From Candidatus Delongbacteria bacterium (GTDB lineage Bacteria; UBA4055): a stretch of 60,491 bases of DNA. Each line of letters starts with the position of its first letter. The stretch's first letter is position 1. The notes under the pieces were generated by a model that made no database searches, was not told the origin of the DNA, and worked only from the letters and a program-made list of their open reading frames with translations. Positions 40,815 through 52,163 of this stretch are shown here, piece after piece. The stretch lies in assembly GCA_003252515.1 (NCBI GenBank), contig QKDR01000029.1, positions 1 to 60,491 on the forward strand. The letters run 5' to 3'. The translations under genes and the position numbers were made by a program.

Positions 40815-41780
40815 TCAACTCATTATAAAATCTTGTTTTTCGTGCTCGCAAAAGGTCGCCATTGCAGGTTTCTCATTAATGTCGAGACCTGCAGTATATC
40901 CGAACCTTTCCCTGATCTCCTTCTCGACCTTCTTGTTCATGATCCTCAGGTCGATCTCCACTGGACAGGCAGTAACGCAGGACCCGCAGTCGACGCACCT
41001 CCCGGCTATATGTATATTTCTTATAAGGTGGAAAATTATCGAATCTGTCGTTTCAGGGGTCTTTCCTATCCACTGCGGATTGTTCTGATCCACAAAACAT
41101 TCGTTGCAGTAGCATGACGGGCAAACGTTCCTGCATGCGTAGCAGCGGATGCATTTTGAATATTCCTCAGTAATATATTCCCATCTTTCTTCGGCTGTTT
41201 TCTTTTCGAACTCGTTGACGCTGGAGAATTCTTCCGGTACGTCAACTTCTTTTCTCGGTTCGCCGATGAAAACGTCGTATTCCCTCGCGTCGGGATATCT
41301 GCAGTAGATACAGGAATCTGAAAGGACTTCTTTTTCCGGTACGGATTTCTCGAGATCCCTGCCTTTTATCGTAACTATATTTCCGGAGCTTTTCACGGAA
41401 AATATCTCTTTTCCTTCCGCTGCAGCCCTCAGCTTCTTTTTCTCATACATCCCTTCGCAGTGTACGCCGATTATAAATACGTTTTCTCTCTTGACCTGAT
41501 TCTCAACAGCATAAAGAACGACCGATCTGGCATCACAGCCCTTAACGATCACTCCGACCTTCGCATGATCCTTAGAAAGTTTCCTCTTGTCTTTCGTCAG
41601 ATATGAAGTAAGATTGTTCCTGCATGTATGGTCGAATATCAGTTCCCCGACATCTTCGGGATATTCCATGAACAGAGGCGTGGCGATACCGGGAAGAGTG
41701 CCTTTTTTCCAGCCGATCACGATATCCGCCTTCTTCTCTTCAAGTATCTTCTTAACCGTATCCTTAAGTTCCTGCAGCAT
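40815..41780 (-). CDS. Fe-S protein, member of a local three-member paralog family (FlxC/FrhB-like?)
   Basis: CIRCYACRNVCPSCYCNECF...IFHLIRNIHIAGRCVDCGSCVTACPVEIDL. N-terminal GCDARS motif. Its ATG shares one base with the mvhD stop (TAATG). Confidence 0.6.
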   Translation of the reverse strand: MLQELKDTVKKILEEKKADIVIGWKKGTLPGIATPLFMEYPEDVGELIFDHTCRNNLTSYLTKDKRKLSKDHAKVGVIVKGCDARSVVLYAVENQVKRENVFIIGVHCEGMYEKKKLRAAAEGKEIFSVKSSGNIVTIKGRDLEKSVPEKEVLSDSCIYCRYPDAREYDVFIGEPRKEVDVPEEFSSVNEFEKKTAEERWEYITEEYSKCIRCYACRNVCPSCYCNECFVDQNNPQWIGKTPETTDSIIFHLIRNIHIAGRCVDCGSCVTACPVEIDLRIMNKKVEKEIRERFGYTAGLDINEKPAMATFCEHEKQDFIMS

Positions 41781-42202
41781 TATTTAACTCCTTTTACAAG
41801 TCTTTTGGCCGGTCCGATCTTTTTTATATCTTCCGATATTTTTGCTATAATATTGGCGAATCTTTCGCCTTCTCCTGCGGAAATCCACGAGAACTGAACT
41901 CTCTCCGGTTCAACTCCGACATACTCTAAGAGAGGCTTGATCGCCGCGAATTTTCTTCTTGCTATGAAATTACCTGACAGGTAATGGCAGTCGCCCGGAT
42001 GTCAGCCGGATACGAAAAGCCCATCATAACCGCTCTGAAGCGTCTTTACTATAAAAAGCGGATCGACCCTTCCGGAACATGGTATTCGCACAACTCTTAC
42101 GTTCGGAGGGTACTGCATCCTGGATACACCTGCCAAGTCAGCTCCGGCATAAGAGCACCAGTTGCACAGTAAAGCCAGTATTTTCGGTTCCCAGTTACTC
42201 AT
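41780..42202 (-). CDS. mvhD: MvhD (methyl-viologen-reducing hydrogenase delta / FlxD-like) selenoprotein; UGA at 42004..42002 read as Sec
   Basis: The track ORF 42002..42202 ends ...LFVSG at a TGA. The same frame continues U-HPGDCHYLSGNF...SWISAGEGERF for 73 sense codons to TAA 41782..41780. The TGA sits at the Cys of the conserved G-C-H-x-G-D-C-H-Y motif. Confidence 0.85.
41969..41985 (-). promoter_or_regulatory. SECIS-like hairpin downstream of UGA (mvhD copy 1)
   Basis: In the mRNA: AUUACC-UGUCA-GGUAAU, starting 17 nt after the UGA. Confidence 0.5.
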
Positions 42203-45300: not shown

Positions 45301-45741
45301 CTAAATAAATATATTGTGTTTACTTTCATTCTCACCTTTTTCCAGGATATCTTTTGTGAACTCGTTGCCGACCTGAGCGAATTTCTGCCCTTCCGAAGCC
45401 GAGATCCATGACAACCTGAACCTTTCTTCGTCAAGTCCGAGACCTCCGAACAGGGCTTTTAGAATTTTGATCCTTCTTCTTGTATAGAAATTACCGACCT
45501 GGTAATGGCAGTCGCCGGGGTGTCATCCGCCCACAAGTATGCCGTCAGCCCCTCTCAGGTACGATTTGATAAGGAATACAGGATCGATCCTGCTGGAGCA
45601 CATTACCTTTATCGGCAGAATAGATGTCGGATAGGACATCCTGTTGATACCCGCCAGATCCGCTCCGGTATATGAACACCACTTGCATAAAAAACTTACG
45701 ATCTTTGGTGATTCAGCGCTTTTCATATCTTTATTTTCCAT
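45301..45741 (-). CDS. mvhD: MvhD-like selenoprotein; UGA at 45525..45523 read as Sec
   Basis: The track ORF 45523..45741 ends ...ILVGG at a TGA. The frame continues [13 protein letters not shown]...[11 protein letters not shown] for 73 codons to TAG 45303..45301. Confidence 0.85.
45490..45506 (-). promoter_or_regulatory. SECIS-like hairpin downstream of UGA (mvhD copy 2)
   Basis: In the mRNA: AUUACC-AGGUC-GGUAAU, starting 17 nt after the UGA. The loop contains GGUC. Confidence 0.55.
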
Positions 45742-48020: not shown

Positions 48021-49706
48021 CTACCTTACAGCTTCTTTAATTTCCTGGAACAGCTGCGGGTTGGTGAAATGCCTTGATCTTATTGAACCTGAAGGACAGC
48101 TTCCCACGCAGTTACCGCATCCTCTGCAAACGGCACCGTTGACTACCGAGACCGCTTTCGCATCATCAAAATAAATAGCACCGTATTTACATACTTTGAG
48201 ACATGTCTGACATCCGGTACAGTACGCTTCCAGAACTTCAGACACCTTAACTTCAGGAACGATCTTCTGACCGGGAATAAGCTGGGTAGATATCTTTGCG
48301 ACAGCCGCTTTCGCCTGTATTATGGAATCTGCGACATTAGCCGGACCGTGAGCGGCACCGACGGCAAAGATACCGTCGTTGGATGAAGATATCGGATTTA
48401 TCTTAAGATGAGCTTCTTTTATGAATCCGTATTCGTCAAGATCGATATTGAGAAGTTGAGCAAGTTCTTTAGTTCCCATGGCCGGTATGACCGACTTGGC
48501 GTAAATTATCATATCGTGCTCATCTGTTCCCTCTGTACCATAAGGATCGGCGTATTTTACCGTCTCGCCTTTAAGATTGAGACCGCTGATATATTTGAAT
48601 TCAATACCTTCCTCTCTGACATCCTTATAGAATGACTGACTGTCTTTTGTAGGAAGGCACAGATCTCTGATGTAATGGACGACAGGAACATCGGGATACA
48701 TGGCTCTTATATATGATGATATCTTTATCAGATAATTGCAGCAGATCTTTGAACAGTAGCCGGATAACTCTCTTCCGACACAGTGTATAATTCCCACTGA
48801 AGTTGGTGTCTTGCCGTTTTTCTTCAGCACTTTCTTCTGCTGAGCCATAAGAGCTTCTATCTCGAGTCCGCAATGTACATCGTGTTCGTCTGAAAATTCC
48901 ATGTATGCTGATTCTCCGGCATGAAGCAGTTCGTATCCCGTCGCGACTATAACGGCTCCTGCCATGAATTCCGTAGTATCGTTGTTAACAAGATTTCTTA
49001 TAACAATTTCATAATTACCCTGAAAACCTATAATACTTTCAAGCTTTGTACTTGTAAACACTTTTATATTCGGGTTCTTTTTGAGTTTTGCGAGCTTCTG
49101 ACTTATCATGTTCAGGTTCGATCCCTGCTCGGTCAGCAGGCCGTGAAGCCTGGTAGTCTTACCTCCCAGTTCCGGGGCTCTTTCGATAAGATAGACCGTC
49201 CTGTCCTTTGATGCAAGGTTCAGAGAAGCCTGAACACCGGCTATACCTGCTCCGATCACAAGCACATCGCAGTTAGAATCAAGCTGGTTCTCAAATAACT
49301 GTTCCTGATACAGAACTCTGTTCATACCGCCGTGAATATACTTGACGGCTTTATCCGTCGACTGTTCCTTGTCAGGTATTACCCATGCGCATTGCTCTCT
49401 GATATTCACCATCGTATAAAGATAAGGGTTCAGCTTTGTTTTCTTGCAGACCCCGATGAAAGTCGAATCGTGCTCTCTCGGTGAACAGGCGGCGCAGACC
49501 ATATGGGTAAGTTCGTTTGAATTTATCTCATCCTCAAGAAATTTCTTGCCTTCGTTCGAACAGAGAAGCTTATGTCGTCTTATAACAAGCTCTTTATCAC
49601 CGAAATCCTTCAGCCCGGCTATTTCCGCTGCTATCCTGTCCATATCCACTTTACTGGCTATGTTGGGACCGCACTCGCATAAGAATATTCCTATTTTATC
49701 ACCCAT
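48021..49706 (-). CDS. hdrA: HdrA, complete canonical-type module (561 aa; second half of a split double HdrA)
   Basis: KIGIFLCECGPNIASKVD N-domain, VIGAGIAGVQASLNLA, GYCSKICCNYLIKIS, and C-terminal CTGCQTCLKVC plus CRGCGNCVGSCP. Confidence 0.8.
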   Translation of the reverse strand: MGDKIGIFLCECGPNIASKVDMDRIAAEIAGLKDFGDKELVIRRHKLLCSNEGKKFLEDEINSNELTHMVCAACSPREHDSTFIGVCKKTKLNPYLYTMVNIREQCAWVIPDKEQSTDKAVKYIHGGMNRVLYQEQLFENQLDSNCDVLVIGAGIAGVQASLNLASKDRTVYLIERAPELGGKTTRLHGLLTEQGSNLNMISQKLAKLKKNPNIKVFTSTKLESIIGFQGNYEIVIRNLVNNDTTEFMAGAVIVATGYELLHAGESAYMEFSDEHDVHCGLEIEALMAQQKKVLKKNGKTPTSVGIIHCVGRELSGYCSKICCNYLIKISSYIRAMYPDVPVVHYIRDLCLPTKDSQSFYKDVREEGIEFKYISGLNLKGETVKYADPYGTEGTDEHDMIIYAKSVIPAMGTKELAQLLNIDLDEYGFIKEAHLKINPISSSNDGIFAVGAAHGPANVADSIIQAKAAVAKISTQLIPGQKIVPEVKVSEVLEAYCTGCQTCLKVCKYGAIYFDDAKAVSVVNGAVCRGCGNCVGSCPSGSIRSRHFTNPQLFQEIKEAVR

Positions 49707-49717
49707 AAACTACCTTA

Positions 49718-51007
49718 TTATTCATTTATTACAGCAAGAATACCCGCCACAGCAGCTTCAGCCTGCAGGATCGAACTCTGAACATCTTTAGGTCCTTCAA
49801 CGCAGCCTGCCACAAAAATACCGGCTCTCGAAGTTTCCACAGATCCTATCTCATACGGCTCTACACTTATAAACCCGTATTTATCTCTATCGATCTTGAG
49901 TATTTCAGTAAGGTCGACAATATTCTTCGGAGGTACAAGAGAATTTGCGAGTATTACCATATCCGTTGAGATCTGCTCAACTTTTCCTTTGTATAAATAT
50001 TTCACATTCAGTTTATCTCCTGCTTCTTCAATATTAATACTGTTCATATCTGCCTGGAAAATAAACTCGGAATCATGAGATTTAACGCTATCATAAAATT
50101 TCTGATAGTTTTTATCAGTTAAACAAATATCGGAATACAGATTGAATATTCTAACGTTTTCCAGTTTGTGTTTTATGAAATGCGCGTGTTTTGAAGAAGA
50201 CATACAGCATACTGTTGAACAGTATCCTGACTCTTCTCTTCCGACACAGTGAATGATAGCTACGGACTCAGGTTTCTTCCCGTTTCGCAGGATTAATTCA
50301 CCCTGAGTAGGTCCGTTAGAAGCGAAAAGCCTTTCGAATTCAAGCGAAGTATATACTCCATCCAGTTTGCTGTATCCCAGTCTGTCAATTTCTGCAGCAT
50401 CGTAAATATCATATCCGGTCGCTACGATAATTCCCGACACACTGAATTCCAGTACCTGATCTGTATCTTTAAGATCAATCGCCGCGAACATGCACGACTC
50501 AACGCATTTCGTACATTCCTCCGTGCCGTTCAGATTCAGGCATTTTTCCCTGTCGATAACCGGTACGTTCGGTAAAGACCCCGAACACGGGACGTAAATA
50601 GCTTTCTTGTCTGCCAGATTCTCTTCCCATTCGTTTTTCAGAACTACAGGACAAACCTCATAACACATTCCGCAACCAAGACAAAGCTCCAGGCTTACAT
50701 ACCTTGCTTTTTTCCTGACCGAGACCTTGAAATCACCTCTGTTTCCTGACACTTTTTCGATCGAGCTGTAAGTTAACACCTGAATGTCTTTATTCTGAAG
50801 TATAGACTGCTGGATCGGTGCTACAAGACAGGTTGAGCAGTCAAGATTCGGAAAAGTCTCCTCGTTCTTGATCGTCTTGCCGCCTATTATCGGGAGTTTT
50901 TCTACAAGGATAACCTTTTTCCCGGCTTTCGAAAGCATAAGTGCGGCTTCCATTCCCGCTACACCGGACCCGATTATCATAACATTTTCATTAGCGCTCA
51001 TCATCAC
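49718..51007 (-). CDS. hdrA: HdrA-like flavin module without N-domain (429 aa; first half of a split double HdrA)
   Basis: IIGSGVAGMEAALMLS...EETFPNLDCSTCL, CLGCGMCYEVCP and GYCSTVCCMSSSKHA. GTG/ATG start at 51007/51004. Confidence 0.8.
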   Translation of the reverse strand: MMMSANENVMIIGSGVAGMEAALMLSKAGKKVILVEKLPIIGGKTIKNEETFPNLDCSTCLVAPIQQSILQNKDIQVLTYSSIEKVSGNRGDFKVSVRKKARYVSLELCLGCGMCYEVCPVVLKNEWEENLADKKAIYVPCSGSLPNVPVIDREKCLNLNGTEECTKCVESCMFAAIDLKDTDQVLEFSVSGIIVATGYDIYDAAEIDRLGYSKLDGVYTSLEFERLFASNGPTQGELILRNGKKPESVAIIHCVGREESGYCSTVCCMSSSKHAHFIKHKLENVRIFNLYSDICLTDKNYQKFYDSVKSHDSEFIFQADMNSINIEEAGDKLNVKYLYKGKVEQISTDMVILANSLVPPKNIVDLTEILKIDRDKYGFISVEPYEIGSVETSRAGIFVAGCVEGPKDVQSSILQAEAAVAGILAVINE

Positions 51008-51014
51008 ATTCCAG

Positions 51015-51437
51015 TTATAAATTGATGTCTTTTGTAACAGGATTAGGACCTAGCTTAGCGATCTTCTTCGTGAACTCATTCACGACCTGTTCGTATTTAT
51101 TGCCTTCCGAAGCTGATATCCACGTAAGCTGGATCCTTTCGGGATCAATATTCAAGGTTTGGAATACCTTTTTAAGGAGAGCGTACCTTCTTCTTGTGTA
51201 GTAATTACCGACCTGGTAATGGCAGTCGCCCGGATGTCAGCCGGCGATCAGAACGCCATCCGCTCCGTTGAAGAAAGTAGTAAGTAATAGATTATGGTCC
51301 ACCCTGCTGGAACACATCACCCTGACGGCGTTGAATCCGGGTGGCAGATTTTTTTTAGCGGCTCCCGCCATATCCGCTGCGGCATATGTACACCAGTTGC
51401 ATAGGAAGCCGACTATTTTCGGATTGAACTCTTCCAT
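51015..51437 (-). CDS. mvhD: MvhD-like selenoprotein; UGA at 51239..51237 read as Sec
   Basis: The track ORF 51237..51437 ends ...VLIAG at a TGA. The frame continues [13 protein letters not shown]...TWISASEGNKY for 73 codons to TAA 51017..51015. Confidence 0.85.
51204..51220 (-). promoter_or_regulatory. SECIS-like hairpin downstream of UGA (mvhD copy 3)
   Basis: In the mRNA: AUUACC-AGGUC-GGUAAU, starting 17 nt after the UGA. Identical to copy 2. Confidence 0.55.
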
Positions 51438-51469: not shown

Positions 51470-51499
51470 TAAAAAAGCGCCCGTCTGCTGACGGACGCC
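51470..51499 (-). terminator. rho-independent terminator after the dsrE-like/tusA pair
   Basis: GCGTCCGTC-agca-GACGGGCGC hairpin (one mismatch), followed on the minus strand by TTTTTT. Confidence 0.7.
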
Positions 51500-51512
51500 T
51501 AACGAGAATCGT

Positions 51513-51737
51513 TTATAGCTGGATCTGAGCGTTGTGGACTCCGGAACCGTCGTCCATGCAGAACATCAGGGTTTTTCCGGTTCTGTCGCACCACGCTTTT
51601 ATATCAGTAGGAAATGAAGGGCAGTCGGCTTTTATCTCAAGAATGTCGCCGGGCTGAAGAGTAGGTATTACAGCTACCACTTTTAGTATTGGTTGCGGAC
51701 ATTTCAGTCCTAAGCAGTCTAATTCTTTTGTAGCCAT
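51513..51737 (-). CDS. tusA: TusA-family sulfur carrier protein (copy 2)
   Basis: LDCLGLKCPQPILKVV is the CPxP motif. 74 aa. Confidence 0.85.
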   Translation of the reverse strand: MATKELDCLGLKCPQPILKVVAVIPTLQPGDILEIKADCPSFPTDIKAWCDRTGKTLMFCMDDGSGVHNAQIQL

Positions 51738-51765: not shown

Positions 51766-52131
51766 CTAGAATGAAAATGTAAGGTTCGAACCCTGCGCTT
51801 CAGCTACAAAAGTGGTAGCTCCGACAACTTCGCATCCTTCTATCAGATCTTCCTCGTGAAGTCCGTGGACACCAAATCCGAGCTCGCAGATCAGAATTCT
51901 TCCGCCCAAAGCCTTGAATCCTTCCATCATCTCCACAAGATTCGGAAGATTTTTGCTCATTCCTTCTTCATTGAGTTTCTCTATCATCCCTTTTTTCAGC
52001 GCCGGAAGCGCGCTCGGAAGTATAAAGAGTATCACTTCATCCCCGCTTGCAAGAGCTGATACGGAGATAGTTACTGCAGGATAAATGTTCTTTACTTCCG
52101 ATCCGTTAAGAGTGATTGCCAGTTTGCCCAT
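51766..52131 (-). CDS. DsrE/DsrF-like family protein
   Basis: 121 aa. Small alpha/beta protein with ...ILFILPSA... and GGRILICELG (conserved Cys context). Adjacent to tusA. Confidence 0.6.
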   Translation of the reverse strand: MGKLAITLNGSEVKNIYPAVTISVSALASGDEVILFILPSALPALKKGMIEKLNEEGMSKNLPNLVEMMEGFKALGGRILICELGFGVHGLHEEDLIEGCEVVGATTFVAEAQGSNLTFSF

Positions 52132-52163
52132 TTTTTCTCCCTGTGTAATTTTTCACATTTTTA

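Follow-up and report, generated by a model that had tools for sequence, protein, structure and literature searches.

The third mvhD gene of the window (by which we mean the whole stretch of 60,491 nucleotides that was analysed) very probably encodes an MvhD/FlxD-type subunit in which the UGA at codon 67 is decoded as selenocysteine (Sec) by means of a bacterial SECIS element located inside the coding sequence, with the codons that form the stem of this element frozen. Judged from the sequence and its relatives, the in-frame TGA of this gene (copy 3) is almost certainly read as Sec by way of the short RNA hairpin that lies downstream of it. The gene, its signal and the neighbouring features to which we refer are these:

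51015 to 51437, minus strand: mvhD copy 3, an FlxD/MvhD-type [2Fe-2S] electron-transfer subunit (140 codons including Sec67; translated with TGA as U)
51237 to 51239, minus strand: in-frame UGA, putatively read as selenocysteine (Sec67) and aligned with a Cys of GCHxGDCHY in Cys-type homologues
51204 to 51220, minus strand: candidate bacterial SECIS hairpin (5' arm AUUACC, 51220 to 51215; loop AGGUC, 51214 to 51210; 3' arm GGUAAU, 51209 to 51204)
45301 to 45741, minus strand: mvhD copy 2 (146 codons; UGA at 45525 to 45523; hairpin at 45506 to 45490, identical to that of copy 3)
41780 to 42202, minus strand: mvhD copy 1 (140 codons; UGA at 42004 to 42002; hairpin at 41985 to 41969, AUUACCU-GUC-AGGUAAU, 7 bp with loop GUC)
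49718 to 51007, minus strand: HdrA-type flavoprotein module, the likely redox partner, 7 nt downstream of copy 3 (Pfam Pyr_redox_2/FAD_oxidored/Fer4)
48021 to 49706, minus strand: second HdrA-type module, following that at 49718 to 51007
51475 to 51500, minus strand: terminator-like hairpin with a T-run, located after tusA (51513 to 51737); 11-bp stem with 7 GC pairs and a T-rich tail

Read-through product and selenocysteine machinery

The reading frame of copy 3 runs on the minus strand from 51437 to 51015; it reaches ...DGVLIAG, encounters TGA as codon 67 and continues for 73 codons to a TAA at 51017 to 51015. Everything that an earlier note on this DNA had stated as fact about the gene (the open reading frame, its TGA, its TAA and the 73 codons between them) was borne out. 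The read-through product matched PF02662 (FlpD, methyl-viologen-reducing hydrogenase delta subunit) with 167.5 bits (E = 1.5e-49, Pfam cut-off 22.3), and the alignment is full length, with residues 8 to 130 corresponding to profile positions 1 to 123 of 123. The solved MvhD chain 5ODC_D aligned to residues 1 to 137 (E = 7.8e-45). The UGA occupies the position of the Cys in G-C-H-P-G-D-C-H-Y, and in the alignment with 5ODC_D residue U67 faces the first Cys of GGCHLGDCHY. Residues C13, C16, C42, U67 (which replaces Cys) and C72 are invariant across the three mvhD copies of the window.

The genome assembly (G000; a 2.52-Mb MAG of 183 contigs with 42.6% GC) carries a complete Sec trait. Genome-wide searches found SelA (457 bits), SelB (a 636-aa frame, with a wing domain scoring 60.1 bits), SelD (356.9 bits) and a tRNA-Sec with anticodon UCA (56.1 bits, where the gathering score is 47), and ARAGORN at relaxed stringency called the same tRNA as tRNA-SeC(tca). 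The selD gene, which lies outside the window (G000:C165:7199-8119, plus strand), has one in-frame TGA of its own, making it a Sec-type SelD. TGA terminates 502 of the 1,759 open frames of at least 200 codons in the genome, indicating that there is no genome-wide reassignment of this codon. When this genome and 40 relatives were searched, TGA-type MvhD was present in 6 of the 41, and SelA in all six.

That the TGA is a true stop in a split gene or pseudogene, or else an ordinary sense codon throughout the genome, has in our judgement next to no probability. Table-11 gene calling does cut the gene at codon 66, as a true stop would require, but the 73 further open codons match the MvhD profile to its end, and the TGA stands in the same alignment column in all three paralogues of the window and in relatives from many phyla; the long frames ended by TGA and the complete Sec machinery also speak against it. 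The reading of copy 3 as a Sec-recoded MvhD, which the earlier note had proposed, is therefore supported by the PF02662 and 5ODC_D alignments, by the Sec machinery and by the use of TGA as a normal stop elsewhere.

There are four FlpD domains in the genome, of which three are the genes of the window, all with a single TGA. A fourth, degenerate domain lies outside the window (G000:C137:21617-21982, plus strand) as part of a fused frame of 800 aa and has neither the CxxC nor the GCHxGDCHYxxGN motif (it reads DSCTY...IGDCEKDK) and, to judge from its residues, probably binds no equivalent cluster. We considered this domain as an internal Cys-type control and rejected it, the CHYxxGN motif being absent.

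Codon constraint on the stem

The hairpins of copies 2 and 3 had been described as identical, and they are: the 17-mer ATTACCAGGTCGGTAAT at 51220 to 51204 recurs base for base at 45506 to 45490. On the plus strand, the 16-mer GGTAATGGCAGTCGCC has exactly three sites in the window (41980, 45501 and 51215), compared with a mean of 0.18 matches in shuffled sequence at up to three mismatches. This local identity is found among proteins that are 41-45% identical. When the three loci were aligned, all nine amino-acid-invariant degenerate codons at +3 to +16 (counted from the UGA codon) proved to be codon-identical in the three copies, versus 5 of 32 elsewhere (Fisher 6e-6, for a window that was picked after the fact), the latter being the level expected of saturated synonymous sites; with a wider window, from -1 to +16, the corresponding counts are 9 of 12 and 5 of 29 (p = 8e-4). 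Codon usage in the genome is only mildly biased, giving a joint chance of about 2e-7 for nine identical sites, and is near-even for the codons of the stem (CAT 0.57, TAC 0.41, GGT 0.27 and AAT 0.51), so that the chance of finding all four stem codons in all three copies, as computed from codon usage, is 3e-5. The spacer codons GGC GAC TGC are also the same in all three copies (chance from codon usage about 0.006), as are two Arg codons (about 0.02) that differ among the orthologues; these spacer and Arg identities may reflect chance or short-tract gene conversion in this genome. The conservation peak around the UGA that the earlier note had described is thus a real excess, although it is limited to the stem and the G-containing loop and does not extend over the whole of the approximately 45 nt that had been claimed.

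To separate the stem from its surroundings we used the 29 sequences nearest to the three copies, a clade set that divides into three groups of orthologues (11, 11 and 7 sequences) with at least 75% protein identity to copy 1, 2 or 3. The sources are same-family genomes, with the three copies of the window included, and Cloacimonadota and Delongbacteria MAGs. The in-frame UGA is kept in all 29. Only 4 of the 32 conserved degenerate codons are invariant in 29 of 29 sequences, and these four (CAT for His+6, TAC for Tyr+7, GGT for Gly+10 and AAT for Asn+11) are the stem. All other codon columns vary, with a major-codon fraction of at most 0.90, and the spacer codons for Pro+2, Gly+3, Asp+4 and Cys+5 are free to do so (0.48-0.66). 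The three copies are old paralogues, each with its own orthologues in other genera, and the hairpin that they share has been maintained and not recently copied.

The identity between copies (above all the hairpin in copies 2 and 3 and the spacer in all three) could alternatively have arisen by short-tract gene conversion and not by selection on the RNA. Such conversion would account for spacer codons that agree here and vary among orthologues, and for the derived GUC codon that copies 2 and 3 share where their orthologues in genus g6 have GUU; against it, protein identity between the copies is no higher than 41-45%, each copy belongs to an orthologous group of its own when other genomes are compared, copies 3 and 2 of the nearest relative (G005) have GUC and GUA, respectively, and conversion within one genome cannot explain stem codons that are invariant in 29 sequences from same-family genomes and independent MAGs. 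We consider conversion unlikely as the explanation of the identity; at most, it acts alongside selection on the bases of the spacer and the loop.

The GUC codon (Val) bears on the loop itself. In genus g6, the orthologues of these two copies (L030, L036, L031 and L038), with Val as GUU, have a 7-bp stem and a GGU loop, and copies 2 and 3 of the present genome, with GUC, have an A.C mismatch at the seventh pair and a loop of 5 nt. The hairpin common to the two copies is thus a lineage-specific state, in which two paralogues have lost the closing pair in parallel; gene conversion and a changed SelB preference are both possible causes.

Selection on the stem as an RNA structure makes a further prediction at the level of homologues that have Cys at the UGA position, and for these we compared two sets. 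For the Sec set, the genome_contigs collection was scanned for TGA-CAY-CCN-GGN-GAY-TGY-CAY-TAY, with third positions left free so as not to bias the comparison; this yielded over 120 stretches, their sources being Desulfobacterota, Bacillota, Cloacimonadota, Delongbacteria, Planctomycetota, Gemmatimonadota and others; for the Cys set, the metagenome_contigs collection was scanned with the same pattern, TGY replacing TGA. The 119 unique Sec-type HPGDCHYxxGN sequences fall largely into two codon haplotypes, with CAT TAC...GGT AAT in 64 and CAC TAT...GGC AAY in 49, whereas the 115 Cys-type sequences, which encode the identical peptide, are distributed among more than 12 combinations of codons. 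Within nt 13-42, the best contiguous stem has a mean length of 7.1 bp in the Sec set and 3.7 bp in the Cys set, and the mean minimum free energy (MFE) is -7.6 versus -4.0 kcal/mol (Mann-Whitney p = 4e-22, with the two sets drawn from different collections and the comparison taking no account of phylogeny). Scored with explicit pair lists at the same relaxed threshold, one of the two hairpin types described below (A or B) fits 113 of 119 Sec-type but only 15 of 115 Cys-type genes, and all seven type-A pairs occur in 0 of 115 Cys genes.

Compensatory change is visible within the stem as well. The closing pair 26-30 covaries among type-A sequences, being U-A in 45 (with Leu-Glu or Leu-Ser) and A-U in 16 (with Gln-Val, Gln-Ser or Gln-Asp), and in a divergent Sec-type homologue (L032, G*LPGQCHFLEGN) the pair A23-U33 has become U-A through a Tyr-to-Phe replacement together with a change of GGU to GGA. 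A pooled profile of synonymous identity over all Sec and all Cys homologues differs only modestly (0.62 versus 0.52 at +5 to +9), because two hairpin types are mixed in it and two-fold codons have a high baseline; haplotype counts and the clade-restricted analysis of single codons were used in its place.

These comparisons indicate that an RNA-level constraint exists and that it is specific to UGA-bearing genes. The contrary view, in which the local identity follows merely from the invariant CHYxxGN peptide, perhaps with some codon bias, and the hairpin is an accident without function as RNA, draws on the facts that the stem lies wholly in codons of invariant residues, that the fold energy is no better than that of shuffled sequences and that Rfam has no match (see below). 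We hold it to be very improbable: Cys-type homologues with the same peptide keep neither the codons nor the hairpin, the near-even codon usage makes the shared stem codons an improbable coincidence, only the stem codons are frozen in the clade, and the closing pair covaries. Dual coding plus an RNA-structure constraint, as the earlier note had suggested, is accordingly what the nucleotide comparison bears out, the excess over what the peptide requires being present in Sec-type genes, which keep the hairpin codons, and absent from Cys-type genes, which do not.

The hairpin as a SECIS element, and its designs across phyla

The published consensus for bacterial SECIS elements has four parts, with all of which the hairpin agrees: an upper stem of 4-16 bp capped by an apical loop of 3-9 nt, a G within the first two loop positions (pattern N-G-[G/U]-N-N), a distance of 16-37 nt from the UGA to that loop, and an MFE of -7.5 kcal/mol or lower (PMC13188914). 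With the U of the UGA as nucleotide 1, copy 3 forms the pairs A20-U36, U21-A35, U22-A34, A23-U33, C24-G32 and C25-G31 around the loop A26-G27-G28-U29-C30; that is, a 6-bp stem with a 5-nt loop and G at loop position 2 (copy 1 has a 7-bp stem and the loop GUC). The loop in the 64 type-A relatives is GGA, GGU, GUC or GUA. The distance from the UGA to the loop is 22 nt (positions 4-25), and to these structural features is added the evolutionary evidence, namely the constraint specific to UGA-bearing genes and the covariation.

Energetically the agreement is only marginal. Folding from the UGA downstream, which the earlier note had proposed as a check, returned the 6-bp hairpin, with an MFE of -8.4 to -8.7 kcal/mol for the UGA to +36 or +48 (-8.7 kcal/mol to +48), a value that includes a non-conserved 3-bp mini-hairpin; the 17-mer alone reaches only -4.1 kcal/mol. 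Folds of 60 nt from all three copies were no better than dinucleotide shuffles (z from -0.23 to +0.21, with +0.21 for copy 3), and Rfam gave no match at the gathering score over the whole window and none at E <= 10 over 51150 to 51290. The fold energy being unremarkable and an Rfam match lacking, support for the hairpin is comparative and not energetic. The mini-hairpin in the spacer (GGC-GACU-GCC) was considered as a conserved element and rejected, given that its Gly codon is GGC in only 16 of the 29 clade sequences, a distribution like that in Cys genes.

On the preferred reading of copy 3 as a Sec gene, the SECIS element inside the coding sequence is very probably the cis signal for decoding of UGA67; following the paradigm of E. 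coli and Moorella, SelB with Sec-tRNA(Sec) would bind the G-containing loop while the ribosome is positioned on the UGA. The arms of the hairpin are the codons of the invariant His-Tyr (CAU UAC) and Gly-Asn (GGU AAU). Each of their bases serves a conserved residue and the stem at once, so that third positions are frozen in all four codons; the two loop codons are limited to a few residue pairs. The sequences themselves establish the UGA, the protein family, the Sec machinery, and the synonymous constraint and covariation of the hairpin, from which we infer Sec insertion, SelB binding and a redox role of the Sec residue.

Across phyla, the invariant Cys-His-Tyr-x-x-Gly-Asn codons host at least two mutually exclusive hairpin registers, offset by one codon. 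Type A, to which copy 3 belongs, has arms AUUACC/GGUAAU and its loop at nt 27-29, and occurs in Desulfobacterota (for example, Desulfosarcina widdelii L041 and Desulfoluna spongiiphila L085) and in Cloacimonadota/Delongbacteria. Type B, with arms UGCCACUA/UAGUGGCA and its loop at nt 24-26 (UGU, UGG or UGC), lies 3 nt closer to the UGA and is found mainly in Bacillota (for example, Desulforudis L043, Desulfofundulus L077 and L082, Pelotomaculum propionicicum L131 and Neomoorella carbonis L120). A third form, with a long lower stem and energies of -19 to -23 kcal/mol, was seen in six sequences and is the one used in Desulfarculaceae-like genomes (L047, L056, L068, L090 and L091). The residues x1x2 differ by design, being Leu-Glu, Leu-Ser or Gln-Val in type A and Val-Ser, Gly-Ser or Ala-Ser in type B.

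We suggest, tentatively and with less than even confidence, that the MvhD family is an unusually clear case of a coding sequence hosting SECIS elements in incompatible designs, each of which dictates x1x2. If the designs track lineages of SelB, the family would be a natural experiment on the co-evolution of SelB and SECIS and would also show how few synonymous changes part a Cys gene from a Sec gene. The two-register picture is possibly unreported, a non-exhaustive search having found no paper on it, and would be a modest illustration of SECIS evolution in coding sequence.

Genomic neighbourhood and comparison with known systems

The genomic association with an HdrA-type flavoprotein that is expected of MvhD is seen here: an hdrA-like gene adjoins copy 3, copies 1 and 2 flank a fused HdrA of 1018 aa, and further along the island are Fe-S proteins and an NAD-binding/[2Fe-2S] subunit. 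A Pfam search of the neighbourhood found no hydrogenase genes next to copy 3. By the example of MvhD in Mvh-Hdr complexes, the HdrA-type flavoprotein next to copy 3 presumably receives electrons from the copy 3 protein, and the three old paralogues would each serve their own HdrA module.

Upstream of copy 3, the terminator-like hairpin at 51475 to 51500 lies 38 nt before the start codon, and its position suggests that copy 3 begins its own transcription unit within an otherwise long same-strand island; the terminator scan itself found one site, against a shuffle mean of 1.0, and hence no excess. We also examined a DsrE-like frame (51766 to 52158, minus strand) as a further selenoprotein and rejected it: the frame is over-extended, with the TGA as its codon 2, and under table 11 the ORF begins at 52131 and encodes 121 aa.

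The distribution of the island within the family is uneven. Four genomes of the same genus (G001-G004) have SelA, and the PF02662 domain is absent from all four; the three-copy Sec-MvhD island is found in this genome and in three other genera of the family (G005, G009, G012 and G015). Mis-binning of the window's contig (C157) was considered in view of the same-genus genomes and left no sign, the contig having a GC content of 44.1% (42.5 +/- 1.6 for comparison) and ranking 24 of 43 contigs in tetranucleotide distance, as expected of compositionally native sequence. Such a distribution suggests that the hdrA/mvhD island has been gained or lost as a unit, in a patchy manner, among members of the family. 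Contigs of the same family have been deposited under the name Candidatus Delongbacteria; the nearest orthologues come from MAGs of Cloacimonadota.

Several consequences follow for annotation and interpretation. Gene callers cut copy 3 and its two paralogues at codon 66, so that this hdrA/flx-like island will be misannotated unless the UGA is taken as Sec. An FCB-group lineage (Delongbacteria/Cloacimonadota-like) joins the organisms that use selenium in MvhD-type subunits of Hdr-like flavoprotein complexes. The Sec and Cys genes that share an identical peptide offer a clean comparative demonstration that the synonymous conservation is due to the SECIS stem. Knowledge of selenocysteine decoding itself is unchanged by copy 3.

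In archaea the SECIS element is in the untranslated region, and in copy 3 it would be inside the coding sequence, as in bacteria. The loop of the E. coli fdhF SECIS is GGUC, which the GGU(C) motif of copy 3 resembles, and copy 3 also agrees with fdhF and with the bSECISearch model in having a stem-loop just downstream of the UGA and a G followed by G or U in the loop. Unlike fdhF, it has a very short upper stem (6 bp), no conserved lower stem and no evident bulged U, and its loop is about 5 nt further from the UGA.

Among solved structures, chain D of 5ODC (from the MvhAGD-HdrABC complex of Methanothermococcus thermolithotrophicus) is like copy 3 in length (140 aa for both) and in keeping all conserved Cys positions; it differs in having Cys in place of Sec and a [NiFe] hydrogenase as its partner. 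By homology, we infer for copy 3 a role as a [2Fe-2S] relay to HdrA.

MvhD/VhuD, within PF02662 (FrhD/MvhD/VhuD), is listed as an experimentally verified selenoprotein family (PMC13188914, PMC9312934); copy 3 falls in the same Pfam family, of which the verified cases are archaeal (VhuD of Methanococcales). A close parallel is Desulfobacterium autotrophicum HRM2, which has Sec-containing mvhD1, 2, 3 and 5, each beside hdrA or hdrL, and a genome in which selA, selB, selC and selD are all present (Strittmatter et al. 2009, PMC2702500). As in that organism, several small mvhD genes with an in-frame UGA occur in one genome with hdrA neighbours and complete sel machinery, and the type-A codons CAT TAC CTG GAA GGT AAT are found in related Desulfobacterales (for example, Desulfosarcina widdelii L041). 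Here, by contrast, the host is an uncultured FCB-group anaerobe, the three copies share one strand and a stretch of less than 10 kb, Sec is absent from the HdrA modules beside them, and the loop codons are those of Gln-Val or Leu-Ser and not Leu-Glu. Copy 3 is an ordinary addition to a long-known selenoprotein family, with the arrangement of D. autotrophicum found in a different, uncultured lineage.
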